Under the pieces are notes generated by a model, which saw only the letters and a list, made by a program, of their open reading frames with translations, had not been told where the DNA came from and ran no database searches. Shown here piece by piece: positions 6,086 to 43,019 of a stretch of DNA of 43,019 nt. Origin of the DNA: a virus; UHGV virus genome UHGV-0172637. The stretch is one strand, 5' to 3'. Position 1 is the first letter of the stretch. Each line of letters starts with the position of its first letter. Made by a program: the position numbers and the translations under genes.

Positions 6086-6732
6086 TTATAAATCCATTAT
6101 CACTTGTCTTACTAATCCGACCAAACGGCAGTTGCCGTTTACCTCGAGCATCCTGTAGTTGGGATTGAGAGGTACAAGGTATTTAAGCGGACCATCAATG
6201 ACGAATTTTTTTATAGTGGCTTCGTCACTTCCCATTAGCTGAGCAATGACAATTTTACCATTTGCTTGGCTGGCATCTCCAAAGTCAGGTTCTACGACGA
6301 CGAGAGAGCCCTCCGGGATGCTTGGTGCGCCATTTGGGTTAGTCATTGAGTCACCGCGGACTATTAGTGCAAAAGCGCTCTCTGAAACAGCTGCTGAAGT
6401 GTAAACCCAGTCTTGAATGTCTCGTTCCGTTATCGCACCACTATTGGCAGTCCATTCCCCGGCTTGCACCCACGTTAAAACGGGAACTGATCTAATTCCG
6501 AATCTCTGCTCTGGGTTCATTGTTGGCGGTTGTTGTTTCCCGTCATCCTTACCCTCCAGCAACCACTGCGGTGTCTTTTCAAGAGCAGCAGCAAGCGCCT
6601 GAAGGTTCTCACCGCCAGGTTTATAGTCACCAGATTCCCAGCCGGTGATCGTGACGCGGTTTACCCCGACAAGCTTTGCCAGGACAGATTGCGTCATCTT
6701 CAGCTCTTTTCGTCTGCTTCGGATTCGATCAT
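6086..6732 (-). CDS. Prophage repressor, cI/LexA-like (HTH + S24 peptidase domain)
   Basis: N-terminal XRE-type HTH (MTQSVLAKLVGVNRVTITGWESG), C-terminal S24 autopeptidase signature (RGDSM ... K); start taken at ATG 6732 rather than track start 6820. Confidence 0.9.
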
Positions 6733-6797
6733 TCATTTTCATGTAGGCAATCCTACCATTTTCTAATGTAGGAGTGCTTGACCATTTTATGTAAGAT
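6732..6797 (+). promoter_or_regulatory. Rightward early promoter/operator region (OR/pR-like) with three operator-like sites
   Basis: Sites TGTAGGCAATCCTACC (6732-6747), TGTAGGAGTGCTTGAC (6757-6772), TGTAAGATATCCTACT (6780-6795); TTGACC (6768-6773) - 18 nt - TACTAT (6792-6797) upstream of cro-like gene. Confidence 0.6.
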
Positions 6798-6841
6798 ATC
6801 CTACTATTTATGCACTGCATGACCTAACTCCAGAGGGAAAA

Positions 6842-15093: not shown

Positions 15094-16146
15094 ATGAAAA
15101 ATACTGTAAAAATAAACAGTGTTGAGTTAATCAACGCTGACAGCCTGCATTACGTCGCCACCCTCCCGGATAACTCTATTGATCTGATAGTTACGGATCC
15201 GCCTTACTTCAAAGTGAAGCCCAACGGCTGGGACAACCAATGGAAGGGGGACGAGGACTACTTACGCTGGCTTGATAGCTGTCTGGCTGAGTATGCTCGC
15301 GTTCTTAAACCTGCTGACAGCATTTACCTGTTTTGTGGTCACCGACTGGCCTCAAATATAGAGATTATGATGCGTGCCCGGTTCAACGTTTTGAATCACA
15401 TCATTTGGGCAAAACCATCGGGTCGCTGGAATGGATGTAACAAAGAAAGCCTGCGTGCGTACTTTCCATCTACGGAACGGATTTTGTTTGCTGAGCTCTA
15501 TCTTGGGCCGTACACAGGTAAAGAGGATGTTTACGAAAGGAAAAGCACAGAGCTAAAGCAGCACATTATGACGCCGCTGATTGATTACTTCCGTAATGCC
15601 CGTGAATCACTGGGTGTCAGCTCGAAAGAAATAGCTGAGGCAACCGGAAAGAAAAACATGGCGTCACACTGGTTCGGTGCAAGCCAATGGCAACTACCAA
15701 ATGAAGTGGACTATAGAAAATTGCAGGAACTGTTCACTCGGATCGCTATCGATAAGCACATTCAGCAGAAGCTTGAACATCCTCACCACCAGCTGATAGC
15801 TACCTATCAGTCATTAAACCGCAAGTATTCAGAATTGCTGGAGGAATACAAAACCCTCCGGCGCTGCTTTTCTGTTTCCGCTCTTGTTCCGTATACCGAC
15901 GTATGGACGCATAAACCTGTTCAGTTTTATCCAGGCAAACATCCATGCGAAAAACCTGCCGACATGCTGAAGCAGATCATTAGCGCCAGCAGCAGGCCGG
16001 GGGATATTGTTGCCGATTTCTTTATGGGCTCTGGTTCAACTGTGAAAGCAGCAATAGAACTTGGCCGTCGGGCGATCGGCGTAGAACTGGAGGAAGACAG
16101 GTTTATACAGACCACCGAAGAGGTGGAAAAACTGAAAAAATCATAA
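15094..16146 (+). CDS. DNA methyltransferase, beta-class (N6-adenine or N4-cytosine)
   Basis: DPPY motif near N-terminus (LIVTDPPYF) and SAM-binding FFMGSGST near C-terminus (beta-class motif order); third MTase in the prophage. Confidence 0.7.
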   Translation: MKNTVKINSVELINADSLHYVATLPDNSIDLIVTDPPYFKVKPNGWDNQWKGDEDYLRWLDSCLAEYARVLKPADSIYLFCGHRLASNIEIMMRARFNVLNHIIWAKPSGRWNGCNKESLRAYFPSTERILFAELYLGPYTGKEDVYERKSTELKQHIMTPLIDYFRNARESLGVSSKEIAEATGKKNMASHWFGASQWQLPNEVDYRKLQELFTRIAIDKHIQQKLEHPHHQLIATYQSLNRKYSELLEEYKTLRRCFSVSALVPYTDVWTHKPVQFYPGKHPCEKPADMLKQIISASSRPGDIVADFFMGSGSTVKAAIELGRRAIGVELEEDRFIQTTEEVEKLKKS

Positions 16147-28423: not shown

Positions 28424-28831
28424 ATGTTTTTAAAAAGTGAACCGTTCGAACGTAACGGTAATACAGTCACGCTCTACGAACTGTCGGCACTGCAGCGTAT
28501 TGAGCATCTTGAACACCTGAAGGCGCTGGAAAGTATCACTGATGCCGACATGCAGGCGGCGATGGATATGACGATAAAATCCGGCGCACTGCTGGTGGCC
28601 ATGTCGTTATGGCATGGCCACCCCCTGAAAGGGACGCACAAAACGCCGAAAGAAGACGTAGAGCAGATCCAGAATGAAGTGCTGATGACCTGGCCGCTGG
28701 AGATTGTTTCCGCAGCAGAGCACAGCGTGAAGCTGCTGTCAGGCATGGTGCCTTTGCAGGAAGCGAATGATCCGGAGGATGTCACTGTGACTGAGCCAGT
28801 CAGTCTGGAAAAGTCCTCGCCAGTGAGCTGA
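28424..28831 (+). CDS. G: Tail assembly chaperone G
   Basis: MFLKSEPFERNGNTVTLYELSALQRIEHLEHLK closely resembles lambda gpG N-terminus. Confidence 0.9.
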   Translation: MFLKSEPFERNGNTVTLYELSALQRIEHLEHLKALESITDADMQAAMDMTIKSGALLVAMSLWHGHPLKGTHKTPKEDVEQIQNEVLMTWPLEIVSAAEHSVKLLSGMVPLQEANDPEDVTVTEPVSLEKSSPVS

Positions 28832-29160
28832 CATTCGTCCTGAAACTGGCGCGTGAATTTCGTCGCCCGGACTGGCGCGCCATGCTTGCTGGTATGTCGT
28901 CAACGGAATACGCCGACTGGCGAACGTTCTACCAGGACAATTTTTTTAATGATGTGCAACTGGATGCGCATTTTTCCTCGCTGATGCATATCGTCATTAC
29001 CGCGCTTGACCCCAAAACCACATCAACCCCTGCCAGCTTCAGCCTGCTTTCACCTTCTGCGGAGGATATTGCCGATGATGAACCCGGTGACGCAGTGCTG
29101 ATGGCAAAGGCCGAGGGCATTTCAGGAGGCGTTCGCTATGGCCCAGACGGCAGTGGGTGA
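28424..29160 (+). CDS. T: Tail assembly chaperone G-T fusion made by programmed -1 ribosomal frameshift near 28807-28813
   Basis: -1 frame is open from 28795 and encodes LKLAREFRRPDWRAMLAGMSSTEYADW, matching lambda gpT; A-rich slip site G-GAA-AAG just before G stop. Confidence 0.75.
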
Positions 29161-31654
29161 CCTGGTCGTTAACCTTGACGTTAATTCGTCAAAGTTCAAC
29201 GAGCAGATGGAGTATGTAAAACGGCAGTTTAAGCAGACGGGTGACGCAGCGAATGACCCAGCGCTGAAGGTCCAGCAGTCATTTACCCGTCAGGAGAGCG
29301 CCGCGAAGAAGGCCGGTATTTCTGTAGGCCAGTACAACGCGGCGATGCGTATGTTGCCTGCGCAATTTACGGATATCGCCACCCAGTTGGCTGGTGGGCA
29401 GAGTCCGTGGCTTATCCTGCTGCAGCAGGGCGGTCAGGTGAAAGACTCCTTCGGCGGTATTATACCGACCTTTCGGGCGCTGCTGGGCACCATATCGCCA
29501 GTGATGGTGGGGGTTGGCGCGCTGGCTGCCGCCACTGGCGCGGTGGTTTACGCCTGGTATCAGGGCTCGTCCACGCTGTCTGATTTCAATAAAACGCTGG
29601 TTCTGTCCGGTAATACTGCCGGGCTGACCTCAAACCGCATGCTGGTGCTGGCGAAATCCGGCGAGCAGGCGGGACTCACGTTTAGCCAGACCAGCAGTGC
29701 GCTGACGGAGCTGGTTAACGCCGGAGTGCGTGCCGGTGCCCGGTTCGATGAGATGAGTCAGGCGGTAGCGAAATTCACCGATGCGTCGGGTGTGCCGGTC
29801 GATAAGGTGGCAGCGGCATTCGGCAAACTGACGAACGATCCGACCTCAGGCCTTATTGCCATGGCGCAGCAGTTCCATAACGTCACAGCGGAACAGATTG
29901 CTTATGTGGCGCAACTGCAGCGTGCTGGTGATGAAGCGGGGGCGCTACAGGCAGCTAATGATGCGGCGACGAACGGTTTTCGTGAGCAGACAAAGAGCCT
30001 GCGCGACAATATGGGGTCGATTGAGTCGGCCGCCGACAGCCTTAAGCGTGCCTTTAAATCGATGTGGGATGCGGCGCTCGATATCGGGCGGCCTGACACC
30101 ACGCAGGAGATGGTTGCCAAAGCGGAAGCGGCCTTTAAGCGGGCGGATGAAATCTGGAATCTGCGCAAAGGTGATGGTTATGTCAATGATGATGCGCGCG
30201 CCAGCTACTGGAACGATCGGGAATCTGCACGCCTTGCACTGGAAATGGCGCAGCAGCAGGCCAGTGTGGCAAAGGCAACTGAAGATAACGCTGCCCGCGA
30301 GGCGGTGATTGAATCTGATCGCCAGAAGTATGCCGCGCAGGCGCAGTCGAATTATGCAAAGACGCAGACTGCGCTGGAGAAGTACACGGCCCGTCAGAAT
30401 GAACTGAACAAGGCGCTGAAAGACGGACGGATCCTGCAGGCTGACTACAACATCAATCTGGAAGCTGCGAAAAAAGAATACGACGACTCGCTGAAGAAAC
30501 CCAAAGCCCCTTCAGCGGTAAAAACTCCTGCAGGTGTAAAAAGTGTCGATACTGCCAGCGCGCAGACGCTGGAGCTGGAGGCGCAGTTACGCACTCTGCA
30601 GGAGCATAAGAGCATCACGGATACCATCAGCCAGCAGCGGCAGGAATTGTGGAAACAACAATCCCGCTTTTCAGTGCTGGAAGAGGCCGCCAAAAAGCGC
30701 GCGCTGACCGCCGATGAAAAATCGGTGCTGGCGAACAAAGACGAGGTACTGGCGCGGGCCGAAGTGAATGCCCGGCTGGGCGATCAGATTGTTGCCCAGG
30801 GGCGGTTAAACCGCCTGCAGGACAGCTCGCAGAAGTACGTTACCCAGATTGGGGAGAAAACCCGAGCGCTTGTGGCCGGGGGCAGCATGAGCAGTCGCGG
30901 CGCGCAGCGGCAAAACGAAGAGGCACAGCTGCGGCAGGGCTGGATGAATGCCGGCGGTACGGACACCGATCAGGGTTATCAGAACGAACTGGATGCACTG
31001 AAGAAATATTATGCCGCGCAGGACGAGCTACGTGGCAACTGGCAGGCCGGGGCGAAATCAGCGTGGGCTGACTATGCCGATTCAGCAGCTGATGCCTATG
31101 GTTCGATGAAGTCCGCTGCTTCAGCCACATTCGATGGTATTAGCCAGAATATGGCCGATATGCTGACGACAGGGAAAGCAAACTGGGCAGATTTCACCCG
31201 TTCCACGTTGTCGATGCTGACGCAGATCCTGATGAAGCAGGCTATGGCAGGCCTGGTCAGTTCTGCCACGTCAGCGCTGGGTTTTGCTGGCGGTGGTTAT
31301 ACCGGGTCCGGCGGCAAGTATGAGCCTGCGGGTGTGGTGCACCGTGGAGAGTTTGTCTTTACGCAGGAAGCCACCAACCGAATCGGTGTCGGCAACCTTT
31401 ATCGCATGATGCGCGGCTATGCGACTGGTGGTCTGGTCGGGGGGAGTGGCGATGGCGTTGCTTCTCCTTTTGGTGTCAGCGTGTATGCACCGGTTTCGGT
31501 TACAACAGGCCAGGGGGATTCCGGTCAGCAGAAAGGAAACGGCGATGCGCTGGGGAAAGCCTATCAGCAGGTGATCAACAGTTCCATCAGGGAAGGTATC
31601 ACCCGAGAGGTCCGACCCGGAGGCATCATCTGGAATGCAACAAAACAGAGGTAA
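29138..31654 (+). CDS. H: Tail tape measure protein H
   Basis: 838 aa; long stretches nearly identical to lambda gpH as recalled (ISVGQYNAAMRMLPAQFTDIATQLAGGQSPWLILLQQGGQVKDSFGG...). Confidence 0.92.
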   Translation: MAQTAVGDLVVNLDVNSSKFNEQMEYVKRQFKQTGDAANDPALKVQQSFTRQESAAKKAGISVGQYNAAMRMLPAQFTDIATQLAGGQSPWLILLQQGGQVKDSFGGIIPTFRALLGTISPVMVGVGALAAATGAVVYAWYQGSSTLSDFNKTLVLSGNTAGLTSNRMLVLAKSGEQAGLTFSQTSSALTELVNAGVRAGARFDEMSQAVAKFTDASGVPVDKVAAAFGKLTNDPTSGLIAMAQQFHNVTAEQIAYVAQLQRAGDEAGALQAANDAATNGFREQTKSLRDNMGSIESAADSLKRAFKSMWDAALDIGRPDTTQEMVAKAEAAFKRADEIWNLRKGDGYVNDDARASYWNDRESARLALEMAQQQASVAKATEDNAAREAVIESDRQKYAAQAQSNYAKTQTALEKYTARQNELNKALKDGRILQADYNINLEAAKKEYDDSLKKPKAPSAVKTPAGVKSVDTASAQTLELEAQLRTLQEHKSITDTISQQRQELWKQQSRFSVLEEAAKKRALTADEKSVLANKDEVLARAEVNARLGDQIVAQGRLNRLQDSSQKYVTQIGEKTRALVAGGSMSSRGAQRQNEEAQLRQGWMNAGGTDTDQGYQNELDALKKYYAAQDELRGNWQAGAKSAWADYADSAADAYGSMKSAASATFDGISQNMADMLTTGKANWADFTRSTLSMLTQILMKQAMAGLVSSATSALGFAGGGYTGSGGKYEPAGVVHRGEFVFTQEATNRIGVGNLYRMMRGYATGGLVGGSGDGVASPFGVSVYAPVSVTTGQGDSGQQKGNGDALGKAYQQVINSSIREGITREVRPGGIIWNATKQR

Positions 31655-39472: not shown

Positions 39473-40717
39473 ATGTCAGCAGGAACGTTAACCCTTAACA
39501 ATAACTCAGCCTCGGTTGCCGGAACTGACACCACTTTCACCACTGAGTTAGCTGCAGGTGATTTTATTGTGGTTGTCGTGGGTGGTGTGCCTTACACACT
39601 TCCCGTACTGGAAGTTAACAGCAATACACGGCTGACGCTGGTCAGTAATTACACCGGACCGCGAGCGACCGGGGCTGCCTGGTCTGCCGTTCCCCGCGTG
39701 GCGCTGAATATGGTTACCGCGGCGCTGGTGGCCCAGAGTGCTGAGGCGCTTCGGGGTCTGAACTACGACAAACAGAACTGGCAGCGGGTATTCAGTGGTA
39801 CCGGAACTATCACCGTCAGGTTGCCTGACGGGACAACATTCAGCGGCCCTGCGTGGAACAGTATTGTTCAGACGCTTGCAGGCAAGGCTGACCTGGTCAG
39901 CGGCGTGGTGTCAAAAATGCAGGGTGGGACAGGGTTATCCAGTCCCTTTGGCGCCGGGGCCGGTTCTTTCTGTGAGGGGAATGATGTCCGCCTTAACACT
40001 ATCGGCGGCAAATCCGGAGGCCAGATAACCAGCCCGTTTGGCAAGGTCAACGCATTGCCGGGGAGCTTTGACTCCCTCTATGCCGGAAACCGCAACTACG
40101 GTCTCTACCAGGAACAGATGAATGTACTCGGTGCAGGTTATCTGTATCCGCACATGAGTTTCAAGATGTACTGGCCAGGTCATTACGGCGGGGTGTTTAC
40201 ATGGTCTGCATGGGCAAATGACATGAATCCGGAGTATGTTCTCTCCTGGACAACGGAGGTGGGAACCACGCCGCACATGTGGCGGTTTAATGGCACTAAT
40301 GGTAACGCCACAGCTACCGGAAACTGGGTTAACGGCGGCTCGACTGTCAAAATTAAGGAAAAAGTCGAAGACATCCAGAATCCGCGCGAAACGATGCGGA
40401 TAATCCGCGCATGCACCTGGCGACTGAAAACGAAAAATGCTGACGGACGTTTCGGCATCGGTGTTCTGGCTGAAGGGCTATATGAAGCGTACCCGGAGGC
40501 GAAAGTCACAGCCGGTGATATCGAACTACGGGACGGGACTGTTGTTAAGGATGCCTTATCTGTACAGGCTGGCGATTCCGGCGTACTGGCCGCTGTTCAC
40601 CACGCAACCATTATTTCTCTGATGGATGAAAACGAAGCACAGCAGAAAGAAATCAATCAACTGAAAGCAGACATGGAGGCGCTGAAGAAAATTGTTGAAC
40701 AACTCGCCGCCAGATAA
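39473..40717 (+). CDS. Side tail fiber protein with C-terminal intramolecular chaperone-like domain
   Basis: N-terminus MSAGTLTLNNNSASVAGTDTTFTTELAAGDF typical of enterobacterial prophage tail fibers; C-terminal segment ending in coiled coil QQKEINQLKADMEALKKIVEQLAAR. Confidence 0.7.
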   Translation: MSAGTLTLNNNSASVAGTDTTFTTELAAGDFIVVVVGGVPYTLPVLEVNSNTRLTLVSNYTGPRATGAAWSAVPRVALNMVTAALVAQSAEALRGLNYDKQNWQRVFSGTGTITVRLPDGTTFSGPAWNSIVQTLAGKADLVSGVVSKMQGGTGLSSPFGAGAGSFCEGNDVRLNTIGGKSGGQITSPFGKVNALPGSFDSLYAGNRNYGLYQEQMNVLGAGYLYPHMSFKMYWPGHYGGVFTWSAWANDMNPEYVLSWTTEVGTTPHMWRFNGTNGNATATGNWVNGGSTVKIKEKVEDIQNPRETMRIIRACTWRLKTKNADGRFGIGVLAEGLYEAYPEAKVTAGDIELRDGTVVKDALSVQAGDSGVLAAVHHATIISLMDENEAQQKEINQLKADMEALKKIVEQLAAR

Positions 40718-40897
40718 TTCTGCTCTGGACCATCAAAGTGCAATGTCATAAAGCGAAATAACAGGGTGGGATCTGCCGCAACCATACCGTATGCAAGAGT
40801 ATGGCTGCGGCCGACTGGCGAACGTTCGATAGTGCGAGTACTGAATGATTGCCAGTCGCAGCGGATTGTACTTAAGCAATATGACGGTTCAAGGCGT

Positions 40898-41140
40898 TTA
40901 ATCTGAAACCAGCCACATATCAGCCTCTTCAAACATTTCCTGAACAGTACGGCTTATCTGTTCCTTCTCATGCTTGCTGGCGTCAGTGTTGATCGCCGGC
41001 AGTGTCATCATCGGTTTTACCCGGACATCAGCATCAGGGAAGACCCGGTGAACCCTCTTAGTCAATTCGCCCAGAATGATATCTTTTGCACCGGGCAGAC
41101 CATCAAAATTCCTTTTGCCATAAACGAGTTCTATGAACTT
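40898..41140 (-). pseudogene. dinI: DinI-family gene lacking a canonical start codon
   Basis: Minus-strand frame encodes KFIELVYGKRNFDGLPGAKDIILGELTKRVHRVFPDADVRVKPMMTLPAINTDASKHEKEQISRTVQEMFEEADMWLVSD, collinear with E. coli DinI as recalled; AAG (41138-41140) or ATA (41132-41134) occupies the expected ATG position; no SD. Confidence 0.6.
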
Positions 41141-41165
41141 ATAAGTGATGTGAGAATGGCAGAGT

Positions 41166-41894
41166 CTAATGTTTGTCCGATGATGTGAGTTGCTGCAAAC
41201 ATATATGTTCAGGATGCGGCCTGGATGCTATTTTTTTCCCTGAAGCGGAAAACATTACTACTGTACCTTTAACCCTGGTTTTAACATTCTCGAAATGCTC
41301 TGAAAGTATTTGTTTTAACCCTTCTTTGGAATCTTCGGTGTTTGAAAAGATGCCTTTCTGATTGTATATGCTCATCAGTTTTTTACCGAAGGTATTATGC
41401 ACAACGCCATCACCAACAATTGTGGCGCCATACAGAGTACCATCGTCAGTTAAGGCCTGCGCCGCATTGCGTATTACACAGGTTTTTGTCGATATATTTC
41501 CAGGCAGGCAGTGAAGAAGGTAAAACATTGAAATGGAATCAAATTGACCATGCAATGCTGCGGGATAAGGTTCAAAAACATCATGGCAAATTTTATGTTG
41601 AATTTTTGACTTTCCAGCCCTTGTTGATGCAGCGTTCAGGCTAGCTTCGTTCAAATCCATTAGAGATTTCAAACCACTTTCAGGTACGTGAGTAAGGTAA
41701 AACCCAGTTCCAACACCAATATCCAGATGGTTGTTACCTAAATGTTCCAGAAAGTGTGGAAGAAGGTATTCCTTTGTAGGGCATCCCCATGCAAGTCGAT
41801 TTGATACACCCAAAACCCACCAGTCATAAAGTTTTAGTGTGAATGGTGTGTAAACTTTAGCCCCATCATCTGTGTTTTTTTTCATTAATTTCAC
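41166..41894 (-). CDS. Class I SAM-dependent methyltransferase (small-molecule/protein type, not an obvious DNA MTase)
   Basis: Motif I LDIGVGTGFY; 242 aa; AT-rich 5' half. Confidence 0.6.
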   Translation of the reverse strand: MKLMKKNTDDGAKVYTPFTLKLYDWWVLGVSNRLAWGCPTKEYLLPHFLEHLGNNHLDIGVGTGFYLTHVPESGLKSLMDLNEASLNAASTRAGKSKIQHKICHDVFEPYPAALHGQFDSISMFYLLHCLPGNISTKTCVIRNAAQALTDDGTLYGATIVGDGVVHNTFGKKLMSIYNQKGIFSNTEDSKEGLKQILSEHFENVKTRVKGTVVMFSASGKKIASRPHPEHICLQQLTSSDKH

Positions 41895-41985
41895 CGTGTT
41901 ATAGTTTTGGTCATGAATTAAATCAATAATGGCGATGAATTACAAGGGGTTAAATGATGCCACGACGTAGCGATATTGAAATGGC

Positions 41986-42300
41986 TTGGCATGCTTCGAC
42001 ATGCGGGCATCGCGTTCACATTTCGGGGAAGGGATACTCCAGGGTGCGCTGCTTGTGGTAGATGCATCACTTTCTGCCTGCGATGGCTCACTGCTGATAT
42101 GTGCAATCGACGGGGAGTTCAGGATCAAACGATATCGAACACATCCTCAACCCCACCTGATTAATCTGGAGAGCGGGAGAAGGGAGGTGCTACCAGTAGA
42201 TGATGACGGTTACGGTTCTGCACCCGCTATATTCGGGGTGATTACTTACATCATTAATGATGCCAGGAACGCGGAGTTTGATGATTGTCCGGTGATGTAA
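41986..42300 (+). CDS. UmuD-prime-like S24 peptidase-fold protein lacking the N-terminal arm
   Basis: 104 aa; aligns to UmuD C-terminal domain (LLVVDASLSACDGSLLICAIDGEFRIKRY...IFGVITYII); upstream frame does not encode a UmuD N-terminus. Confidence 0.55.
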   Translation: MACFDMRASRSHFGEGILQGALLVVDASLSACDGSLLICAIDGEFRIKRYRTHPQPHLINLESGRREVLPVDDDGYGSAPAIFGVITYIINDARNAEFDDCPVM

Positions 42301-42969
42301 TCATATTGGCGTTATTAGTTCGGCCCCCTGATTTTTCACATTCCCAACGGCACGCGTTACGGCGTGCCATATAAATTTATCAGCCGGCACAACACCGTCG
42401 GCTGCAATTTCCGCTGCTTCTTTCCCTCCAACATCCTGCCTCATCCATTCGCGCGCGGCTTCCGGTAGCAGTATCAGCGGTCGTCTGTCGTGAATATCAA
42501 CCAGTCCTTTGTCAGCTGCAGCTGTAACTATCAGGAAACCTTCTGCTTCATCTCCACGTTCAAATGGTGTGCTGCCAATCGCCGCCATAAATATCGGCTG
42601 ACCATCGGCCCGATGAATGAAGTAAGGCTGCTTCGTGTCACCTTCCTTTTTCCATTCGTACCATCCATCAGCAAAGCAAATTGCACGACCGTGCTGCCAG
42701 AGTGGTTTAAACATTCTGCTGGTGGCCGCAGTTTCAGATCGAGCATTAATTAGCGGTGGCTTATCCCACCATCCAGGGGCATATCCCCAAATGACAGGGT
42801 CAAGGTGCAGTTGTTCATCACGTTCGCTCAGAAGCAAAACTTTTGTTCCTGGCGCTACGTTGAATCTTCCGATGGGTTCTGGATCGTATGGAATGTCGCG
42901 TTCTGATTCATCAGCGAGCAGGGCAAGATAATCTTCACGCGTCATTGACTGTGCAAAGCGTCCACACAT
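42301..42969 (-). CDS. SOS response-associated peptidase (SRAP/YedK family)
   Basis: 222 aa beginning MCGRF (catalytic Cys2), conserved SRAP signature throughout. Confidence 0.85.
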   Translation of the reverse strand: MCGRFAQSMTREDYLALLADESERDIPYDPEPIGRFNVAPGTKVLLLSERDEQLHLDPVIWGYAPGWWDKPPLINARSETAATSRMFKPLWQHGRAICFADGWYEWKKEGDTKQPYFIHRADGQPIFMAAIGSTPFERGDEAEGFLIVTAAADKGLVDIHDRRPLILLPEAAREWMRQDVGGKEAAEIAADGVVPADKFIWHAVTRAVGNVKNQGAELITPI

Positions 42970-43019
42970 AGAAACCTCCAGCCGTATGTCAGACTGAAAG
43001 TATAGGGCAGTAAGAAAAA

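Follow-up and report, generated by a model that had tools for sequence, protein, structure and literature searches.

A probable start-less dinI pseudogene relic at a mosaic junction of a Citrobacter lambdoid prophage

The minus-strand DinI-family reading frame near the right end of viral genome UHGV-0172637 is very probably a promoterless, start-less dinI pseudogene relic, located at a mosaic junction at the right end of a Citrobacter lambdoid prophage. In the window (the whole stretch of 43,019 nucleotides that was analyzed), an 805-nt segment that carries a methyltransferase gene and a spacer is found where an intact relative has 67 nt of dinI control region. A first-pass annotation made from the sequence had described a DinI-family gene that had lost its start codon, and had proposed either recent inactivation or an insertion that displaced the promoter. 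The second proposal agrees with the comparisons described below. As to the first, the loss was not due to a recent point mutation private to this copy; four diverged alleles have the junction in common. Turnover of prophage accessory genes ordinarily produces loci like this one, which is not a new system or mechanism.

Identity and coding content of the reading frame

The frame consists of 80 sense codons followed by TAA, with no internal stop (translation, KFIELVYGKRNFDGLPGAKDIILGELTKRVHRVFPDADVRVKPMMTLPAINTDASKHEKEQISRTVQEMFEEADMWLVSD). It matched the Pfam DinI family (PF06183) with a score of 75.2 bits (cutoff, 24.2 bits; E value, 5e-21) over profile positions 3 to 63 of 63. Residues 16 to 80 could also be aligned with residues 14 to 81 of the solved E. 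coli DinI (1GHH; E value, 1e-7), including the acidic C-terminal helix (...FEEADMWLVSD in the frame and ...WESADDWFVSE in 1GHH). Residues 2 to 80 aligned without gaps to 80-amino-acid "DinI family protein" entries from Citrobacter, E. coli, and Salmonella, at identities of up to 95%, which bears out the collinearity from the second residue to the C terminus that had been read from the sequence. All of these entries have MFVEL at the N terminus. The score against the NCBIfam equivalog for chromosomal DinI (NF007893) was 40.3 bits, below its cutoff of 111. These scores assign the frame to the DinI family, as a member of the prophage 80-amino-acid paralogue subfamily and not as an orthologue of chromosomal DinI.

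At the nucleotide level, identity to intact E. coli dinI-family genes was 95 to 96% from position 41138 downward. In a megablast comparison with E. coli genomes, homology extended from 41138 to 40788 (96%), and the first homologous base is the last base of codon 1. Codon 1 reads AAG, as the first-pass annotation had stated; the ATA that it had offered as a further replacement of ATG is codon 3, at which the homologues have GTG. No in-frame ATG, GTG, or TTG precedes codon 26, and neither AAG nor ATA is preceded by an AGGAGG-like Shine-Dalgarno core, the latter in agreement with the earlier description. A consensus scan found no promoter near the frame, and no LexA-like site was found near it in the window scan. 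The ORF list for this interval contained just an internal, TTG-started piece of 55 amino acids (40898 to 41065), so the gene had indeed been missed. An antisense ORF on the plus strand (40970 to 41188) had no family match and was treated as spurious.

The stretch downstream of the frame (40772 to 40892) is shared with dinI loci of E. coli, Salmonella, and Citrobacter as far as approximately position 40788. It contains a promoter-like sequence (TTGAAC-16-TACAAT; minus strand, 40892 to 40865) and two imperfect 16-nt hairpins (40772 to 40814 and 40812 to 40858) with no Rfam match, and it could contain the dinI terminator or encode a small transcript. A perfect direct repeat of 18 nt, GCCGACTGGCGAACGTTC, is present at 28912 to 28929, in the tail-gene region between the ORFs at 28424 to 28831 and 29138 to 31654, and again at 40810 to 40827, a short distance past the dinI remnant. 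By chance, ca. 0.01 to 0.03 such repeats are expected, but the flanks of the two copies have no common homology.

Table 1. Features of the dinI region in the window and their counterparts in the intact locus L118
Feature	Window position	Strand	L118 position	Basis or comment
dinI-family reading frame, start-less pseudogene relic (probable)	40898-41140	minus		Translation, Pfam, 1GHH, nucleotide identity
dinI from the G of ATG onward	41138-40870		1503-1771	BLAST map
AAG at the ATG start position	41138-41140	minus		Homology to intact loci begins at the last base, 41138
ATA (Ile); GTG (Val3) in all intact homologues	41132-41134	minus		Common to all four junction alleles
Noncoding tail of the dinI module	40788-40897	minus		Conserved; a homologous region follows intact dinI genes
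Replacement segment (methyltransferase gene plus spacer), 805 nt for 67 nt	41139-41943	minus	1436-1502	BLAST map against intact L118, alignments
87-nt spacer, ancestral methyltransferase stop to dinI remnant	41141-41227	minus		Without start codon, Shine-Dalgarno sequence, or promoter; no terminator found
Perfect 12-bp palindrome in the spacer	41198-41209			Judged incidental; not conserved
Class I SAM-dependent methyltransferase ORF, 242 amino acids as it stands	41166-41894	minus		Pfam Methyltransf_12; last 21 codons are a frameshift extension
A7 homopolymer run	41231-41237	minus		A6 in relatives puts TAG (41230-41228) in frame as the methyltransferase stop
S24 (UmuD/LexA-like) peptidase gene remnant, divergent	41944-42299	plus		Pfam Peptidase_S24 on a 104-amino-acid ORF; 288-nt deletion between 41999 and 42000
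S24 gene 5' end plus first 10 nt of the intergenic region	41999-41944		1381-1435	BLAST map
288-nt internal S24 deletion, no window counterpart			1093-1380	BLAST map
S24 gene, 3' part	42299-42000		793-1092	BLAST map

Replacement of the dinI control region

The reference set consisted of the best-scoring 80 intact homologous loci, taken from viral contigs with six peptide seeds. All 80 have ATG at the start position, in a set that is biased toward full-length genes because one of the six seeds contained M and the best 80 were kept. The LexA boxes that the first-pass annotation had proposed looking for in intact promoters were present: among the 78 loci with enough upstream sequence, 77 have a canonical CTG-N10-CAG box within 100 nt upstream, typically ca. 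20 to 40 nt from the ATG. The typical upstream string is TTGAATACCGGATAAAAACACAGTATAAATACTGTATATCCATCCAGTAAAGGAGCAATAAGCA-ATG, which includes a -35 hexamer (TTGAAT), a -10 hexamer (TATAAA), the LexA box (TACTGTATATCCATCCAGTA), and an AAGGAG Shine-Dalgarno sequence; the hexamers and the Shine-Dalgarno sequence are conserved. Many E. coli and Citrobacter prophages have the S24-peptidase gene and dinI in divergent orientation, separated by an intergenic region of ca. 75 nt. The upstream arrangement of the intact loci fits published work on the Gifsy prophages, in which mitomycin C induces dinI homologues that are preceded by a LexA box (PMC3121763).

The breakpoints were mapped to the base by BLAST against one intact S24-peptidase/dinI locus, L118 (Table 1). 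The S24 gene and dinI are adjacent in L118 and in a second intact locus, L001, and in the window the 805-nt cassette lies between them. The 67 nt that were lost contain the -35 and -10 hexamers, the LexA box, the AAGGAG sequence, and the "AT" of the ATG, as expected if an insertion had displaced the promoter. The left junction, from the S24 start to the methyltransferase gene, is also found in E. coli phages such as 2G7b; the right junction, from the spacer to dinI, is specific to a Citrobacter-type lineage.

The S24 gene divergent from dinI is also a pseudogene, and its 288-nt deletion is common to the window and one other locus with the right junction (L006). In E. coli SC476, the annotation of the S24 copy gives it a frameshift. 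Taken together, the right arm has the look of a group of SOS-associated accessory genes in decay, beside an intact SRAP gene (42301 to 42969). No prophage att sites in the form of direct repeats, and no tRNA, were found within the window. A perfect CTGT-N8-ACAG core (TACTGTAAAAATAAACAGTG, near the LexA-box consensus) is present on the plus strand at 15104 to 15119, in codons 4 to 9 of a DNA N6/N4 methylase gene (15094 to 16146). Approximately 0.7 such sites are expected in the window by chance, so this one could be either a genuine LexA site or a coincidence.

Age of the junction and decay of the sister alleles

Viral and metagenome contigs were searched with a 28-mer across the junction (TCTCACATNACTTATANGTTCNTNGAAC) in which the start-codon positions could vary, and methyltransferase-based loci were added. 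The junction, CACTTATAAGTTCATAGAAC, was recovered in four distinct alleles: that of the window (also L197), L006, L035 (also L195), and L036 (also L194 and L196). All four read AAG TTC ATA, and none has ATG. An independent ENA metagenome scaffold, L197, matches the window with 99.97% identity over 6.5 kb and has the same AAG and the same A7 run; its gene calls leave the dinI interval empty. The first-pass annotation had advised checking the reads for a sequencing error, which is not the source of the AAG because the same codon is present in independent assemblies. The junction is older than the divergence of these prophages, whose dinI sequences differ at 6 to 8% of nucleotides, and is thus not strictly recent.

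The sister alleles have further lesions. In L006, dinI was recombined away after codon ca. 63. L035 has a +1 G frameshift that leads to a stop at codon 13, located in a short G run where it could be an assembly error. L036 has the substitutions L5Q, K9E, and N11I in columns that are invariant in 37 distinct intact proteins. Pairwise dN/dS values among the start-less alleles were 0.12, 0.27, and 0.32, compared to medians of 0.05 to 0.07 for intact pairs of similar dS; the values of two start-less pairs were above every intact pair in their bin. The sister copies are thus decaying under relaxed constraint, as would be the case for a pseudogene.

Two observations run counter to the pseudogene interpretation. 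All 80 codons of the window copy are open, with no internal decay, and the dN/dS values of the start-less alleles are well below 1, which recombination with intact alleles can explain. The dinI body in the window differs from an intact E. coli allele at 4 nt (98% identity), all within the first 45 nt, and from its junction-sharing sisters at 15 to 17 nt. The simplest reading would be that the body downstream of the junction was refreshed by homologous recombination with an intact dinI on other prophages. One IMG genome (2773857937) contains both the start-less, 3'-truncated L006 and, on another prophage contig, an intact dinI (L177) that is 98% identical to the consensus query and is a possible donor for gene conversion. 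The presence of this intact copy in the same genome makes dinI function redundant, and redundant dinI genes on coresident prophages allow a loss of this kind.

The methyltransferase gene and the spacer

The methyltransferase is 91% identical to that of Escherichia phage 2G7b, whose end reads ...SASGKK*. In 85 related methyltransferase loci the gene ends with A6 followed by TAG (...GGG AAA AAA TAG), whereas A7 was found in three (the window, L197, and L006). The A7 run shifts the frame past the ancestral TAG and adds 21 codons (IASRPHPEHICLQQLTSSDKH), so that the ORF ends at 41166. The distance of 25 nt between the methyltransferase stop (TAG, 41168 to 41166) and the AAG had been given correctly in the first-pass annotation; it is, however, secondary, because this short gap, like the extension of the ORF across the palindrome, results from the A7 frameshift. 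A6 alleles have 87 nt between the methyltransferase stop and the dinI remnant. The extra A is either a genuine frameshift in the homopolymer, or the run may be a place where slippage occurs.

A consensus scan of the methyltransferase cassette gave no promoter and no minus-strand terminator; by eye, TTGATT-17-TATAAC can be seen upstream of the methyltransferase start. On the plus strand, a terminator-like hairpin with a T7 run (41206 to 41237), the T7 being the complement of the methyltransferase A7, is located ca. 500 nt beyond the convergent tail-fiber gene. Hits of this type in the region were at or below the expectation from shuffled sequences.

Among the fetched loci, the spacer is present in the junction alleles only, and searches of E. 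coli complete genomes, phage records, plasmid records, and GTDB representative genomes gave no matches to it. No stable fold was predicted for the spacer, which folded more weakly than shuffled sequences (z = +1.2), and the region from 40000 to 43019 contained no structured or known RNA family by Rfam at an E value of ≤1.

The palindrome (AACATATATGTT) that had been described in the spacer is perfect over 12 bp, located at 41198 to 41209 and not at 41200 to 41211. The suggestion that it occupies the place of a dinI operator did not hold. Its arrangement is CTG-N14-CAG, not the CTG-N10-CAG LexA box of the intact homologues, and at the same position the sequence is imperfect in two of the four alleles (AACATATATGGTT in L035 and AACATATACTGTT in L036). 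Perfect 12-bp palindromes occur in the window at chance frequency (13, compared to 10.9 ± 2.9 in shuffles), and the spacer DNA is unrelated to dinI promoters.

Expected consequences for dinI expression

In its ancestral form, dinI would have been switched on by the SOS response, with the TTGAAT/TATAAA promoter, the LexA box, AAGGAG, and ATG in place. The rearrangement would then have substituted the methyltransferase gene and an unrelated stretch of 87 nt for all of the sequence from the -35 hexamer through the "AT" of the ATG, and the dinI body would have been kept from the third position of codon 1 onward. Because neither a terminator nor a stable hairpin was found between the methyltransferase gene and dinI, the remnant might be transcribed passively, at most, by read-through from the methyltransferase gene. 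No DinI protein is expected from it, since it appears to have no usable initiation codon or ribosome site, and the SOS-induced DinI contribution of the prophage would be lost. The prophage carries a CI-type repressor of its own (helix-turn-helix plus S24, 6086 to 6820), so the loss of dinI should not affect prophage induction. That the frame is still open in this copy is probably explained by a very young body, or by one that homologous recombination with an intact allele has renewed of late.

It is unlikely, judging from the sequence features of the locus, that dinI is still functional at a low level, with constitutive, SOS-independent traces of DinI made from a methyltransferase cotranscript by use of a noncanonical initiator (AUA at codon 3, AAG, or AUC at codon -2) or by reinitiation. 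The intact 80-codon frame, the closeness of the methyltransferase stop, the lack of a detected terminator between the two ORFs, and the dN/dS values below 1 would all be compatible with such expression. However, no Shine-Dalgarno core precedes any of the candidate codons, and enterobacteria initiate very poorly at AUA, AUC, and AAG. Furthermore, the 25-nt spacing is confined to the A7 lineage, in contrast to the 87 nt of the A6 alleles, and the disabling lesions in three of the four junction alleles argue against selection for a product. Translation of the start-less frame on the methyltransferase transcript, by near-cognate initiation or termination-reinitiation, is accordingly improbable. 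If it did take place, the promoter swap would have made a RecA modulator that was SOS induced into one that is weak, constitutive, and independent of LexA.

A methyltransferase-DinI fusion protein formed by stop codon read-through or frameshifting is scarcely plausible. The ancestral TAG (41230 to 41228) is in the dinI frame, and the 29 codons that separate it from dinI are all sense codons; this frame relationship holds in the window coordinates and in the A6 allele L036. Nevertheless, the A7 run of the window puts the methyltransferase in another frame, and a 1-nt deletion after the TAG in L035 breaks the relationship, so that it is not conserved among the alleles. A run of 29 stop-free codons is expected by chance in ca. 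25% of cases, and no read-through signal or structure was found. The fusion was rejected on the basis of the nonconserved frame.

The weakest alternative is that dinI is otherwise intact and LexA regulated and that the AAG arose from ATG by a simple recent point mutation or by a sequencing error. It might be suggested by the single-base difference between AAG and ATG and the 98% identity of the body to intact alleles, but its probability is negligible. It is refuted by alignments in which none of the sequence before the G of codon 1 is related to dinI promoters and by five further independent sequences with AAG (L006, L035, L036, L196, and L197).

Comparison with known systems

The probable pseudogene relic most resembles the 80-amino-acid DinI-family genes of E. 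coli, Citrobacter, and Salmonella lambdoid prophages (for example, WP_047414238.1 of E. coli SC476), with which it shares length, collinearity, identities of up to 95% (amino acid) and 96% (nucleotide), and a position between the tail-fiber region and the S24 peptidase gene. These genes have ATG, an AAGGAG Shine-Dalgarno sequence, a sigma-70 promoter, and a LexA box, whereas the window copy lacks all four. The dinI homologues of Gifsy-1, -2, and -3 of Salmonella are likewise DinI-family genes on lambdoid prophages; they are preceded by LexA boxes and induced by DNA damage, and the Gifsy dinI heads an operon under LexA control in which the antirepressor is encoded as well (Lemire, Figueroa-Bossi, and Bossi, 2011; PMC3121763). 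In contrast, dinI in the window stands alone, is terminal, and is promoterless. Chromosomal E. coli DinI (1GHH), a modulator of the RecA filament, belongs to the same Pfam family, but the window frame is only a distant paralogue, and its expression is not expected.

As in the morons and mosaic junctions of lambdoid phages, an extra gene separates two genes that relatives have side by side, and the breakpoint falls sharply at a gene boundary. However, a classic moron is a self-contained unit that leaves its neighbors undamaged, whereas here no terminator was found after the methyltransferase gene and the acquisition deleted the control region and start codon of the neighbor. The locus thus provides a base-resolved example of accessory-gene exchange at lambdoid prophage ends destroying a neighboring SOS-regulated gene. 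In annotation, it should be labeled a DinI-family pseudogene that has lost its 5' control region and start codon, rather than being left blank or called as the 55-amino-acid TTG ORF, and the 3' homopolymer frameshift of the neighboring methyltransferase ORF should be flagged.

Among prophage dinI genes, disruption at the 5' end seems to recur. L199 (an ENA scaffold, P0013) and L200 (Salmonella, P0063) carry DinI-family genes that have Q or I in place of the conserved M and were called with upstream extensions, and in L199 an insertion sequence (rve) fragment abuts the dinI start.
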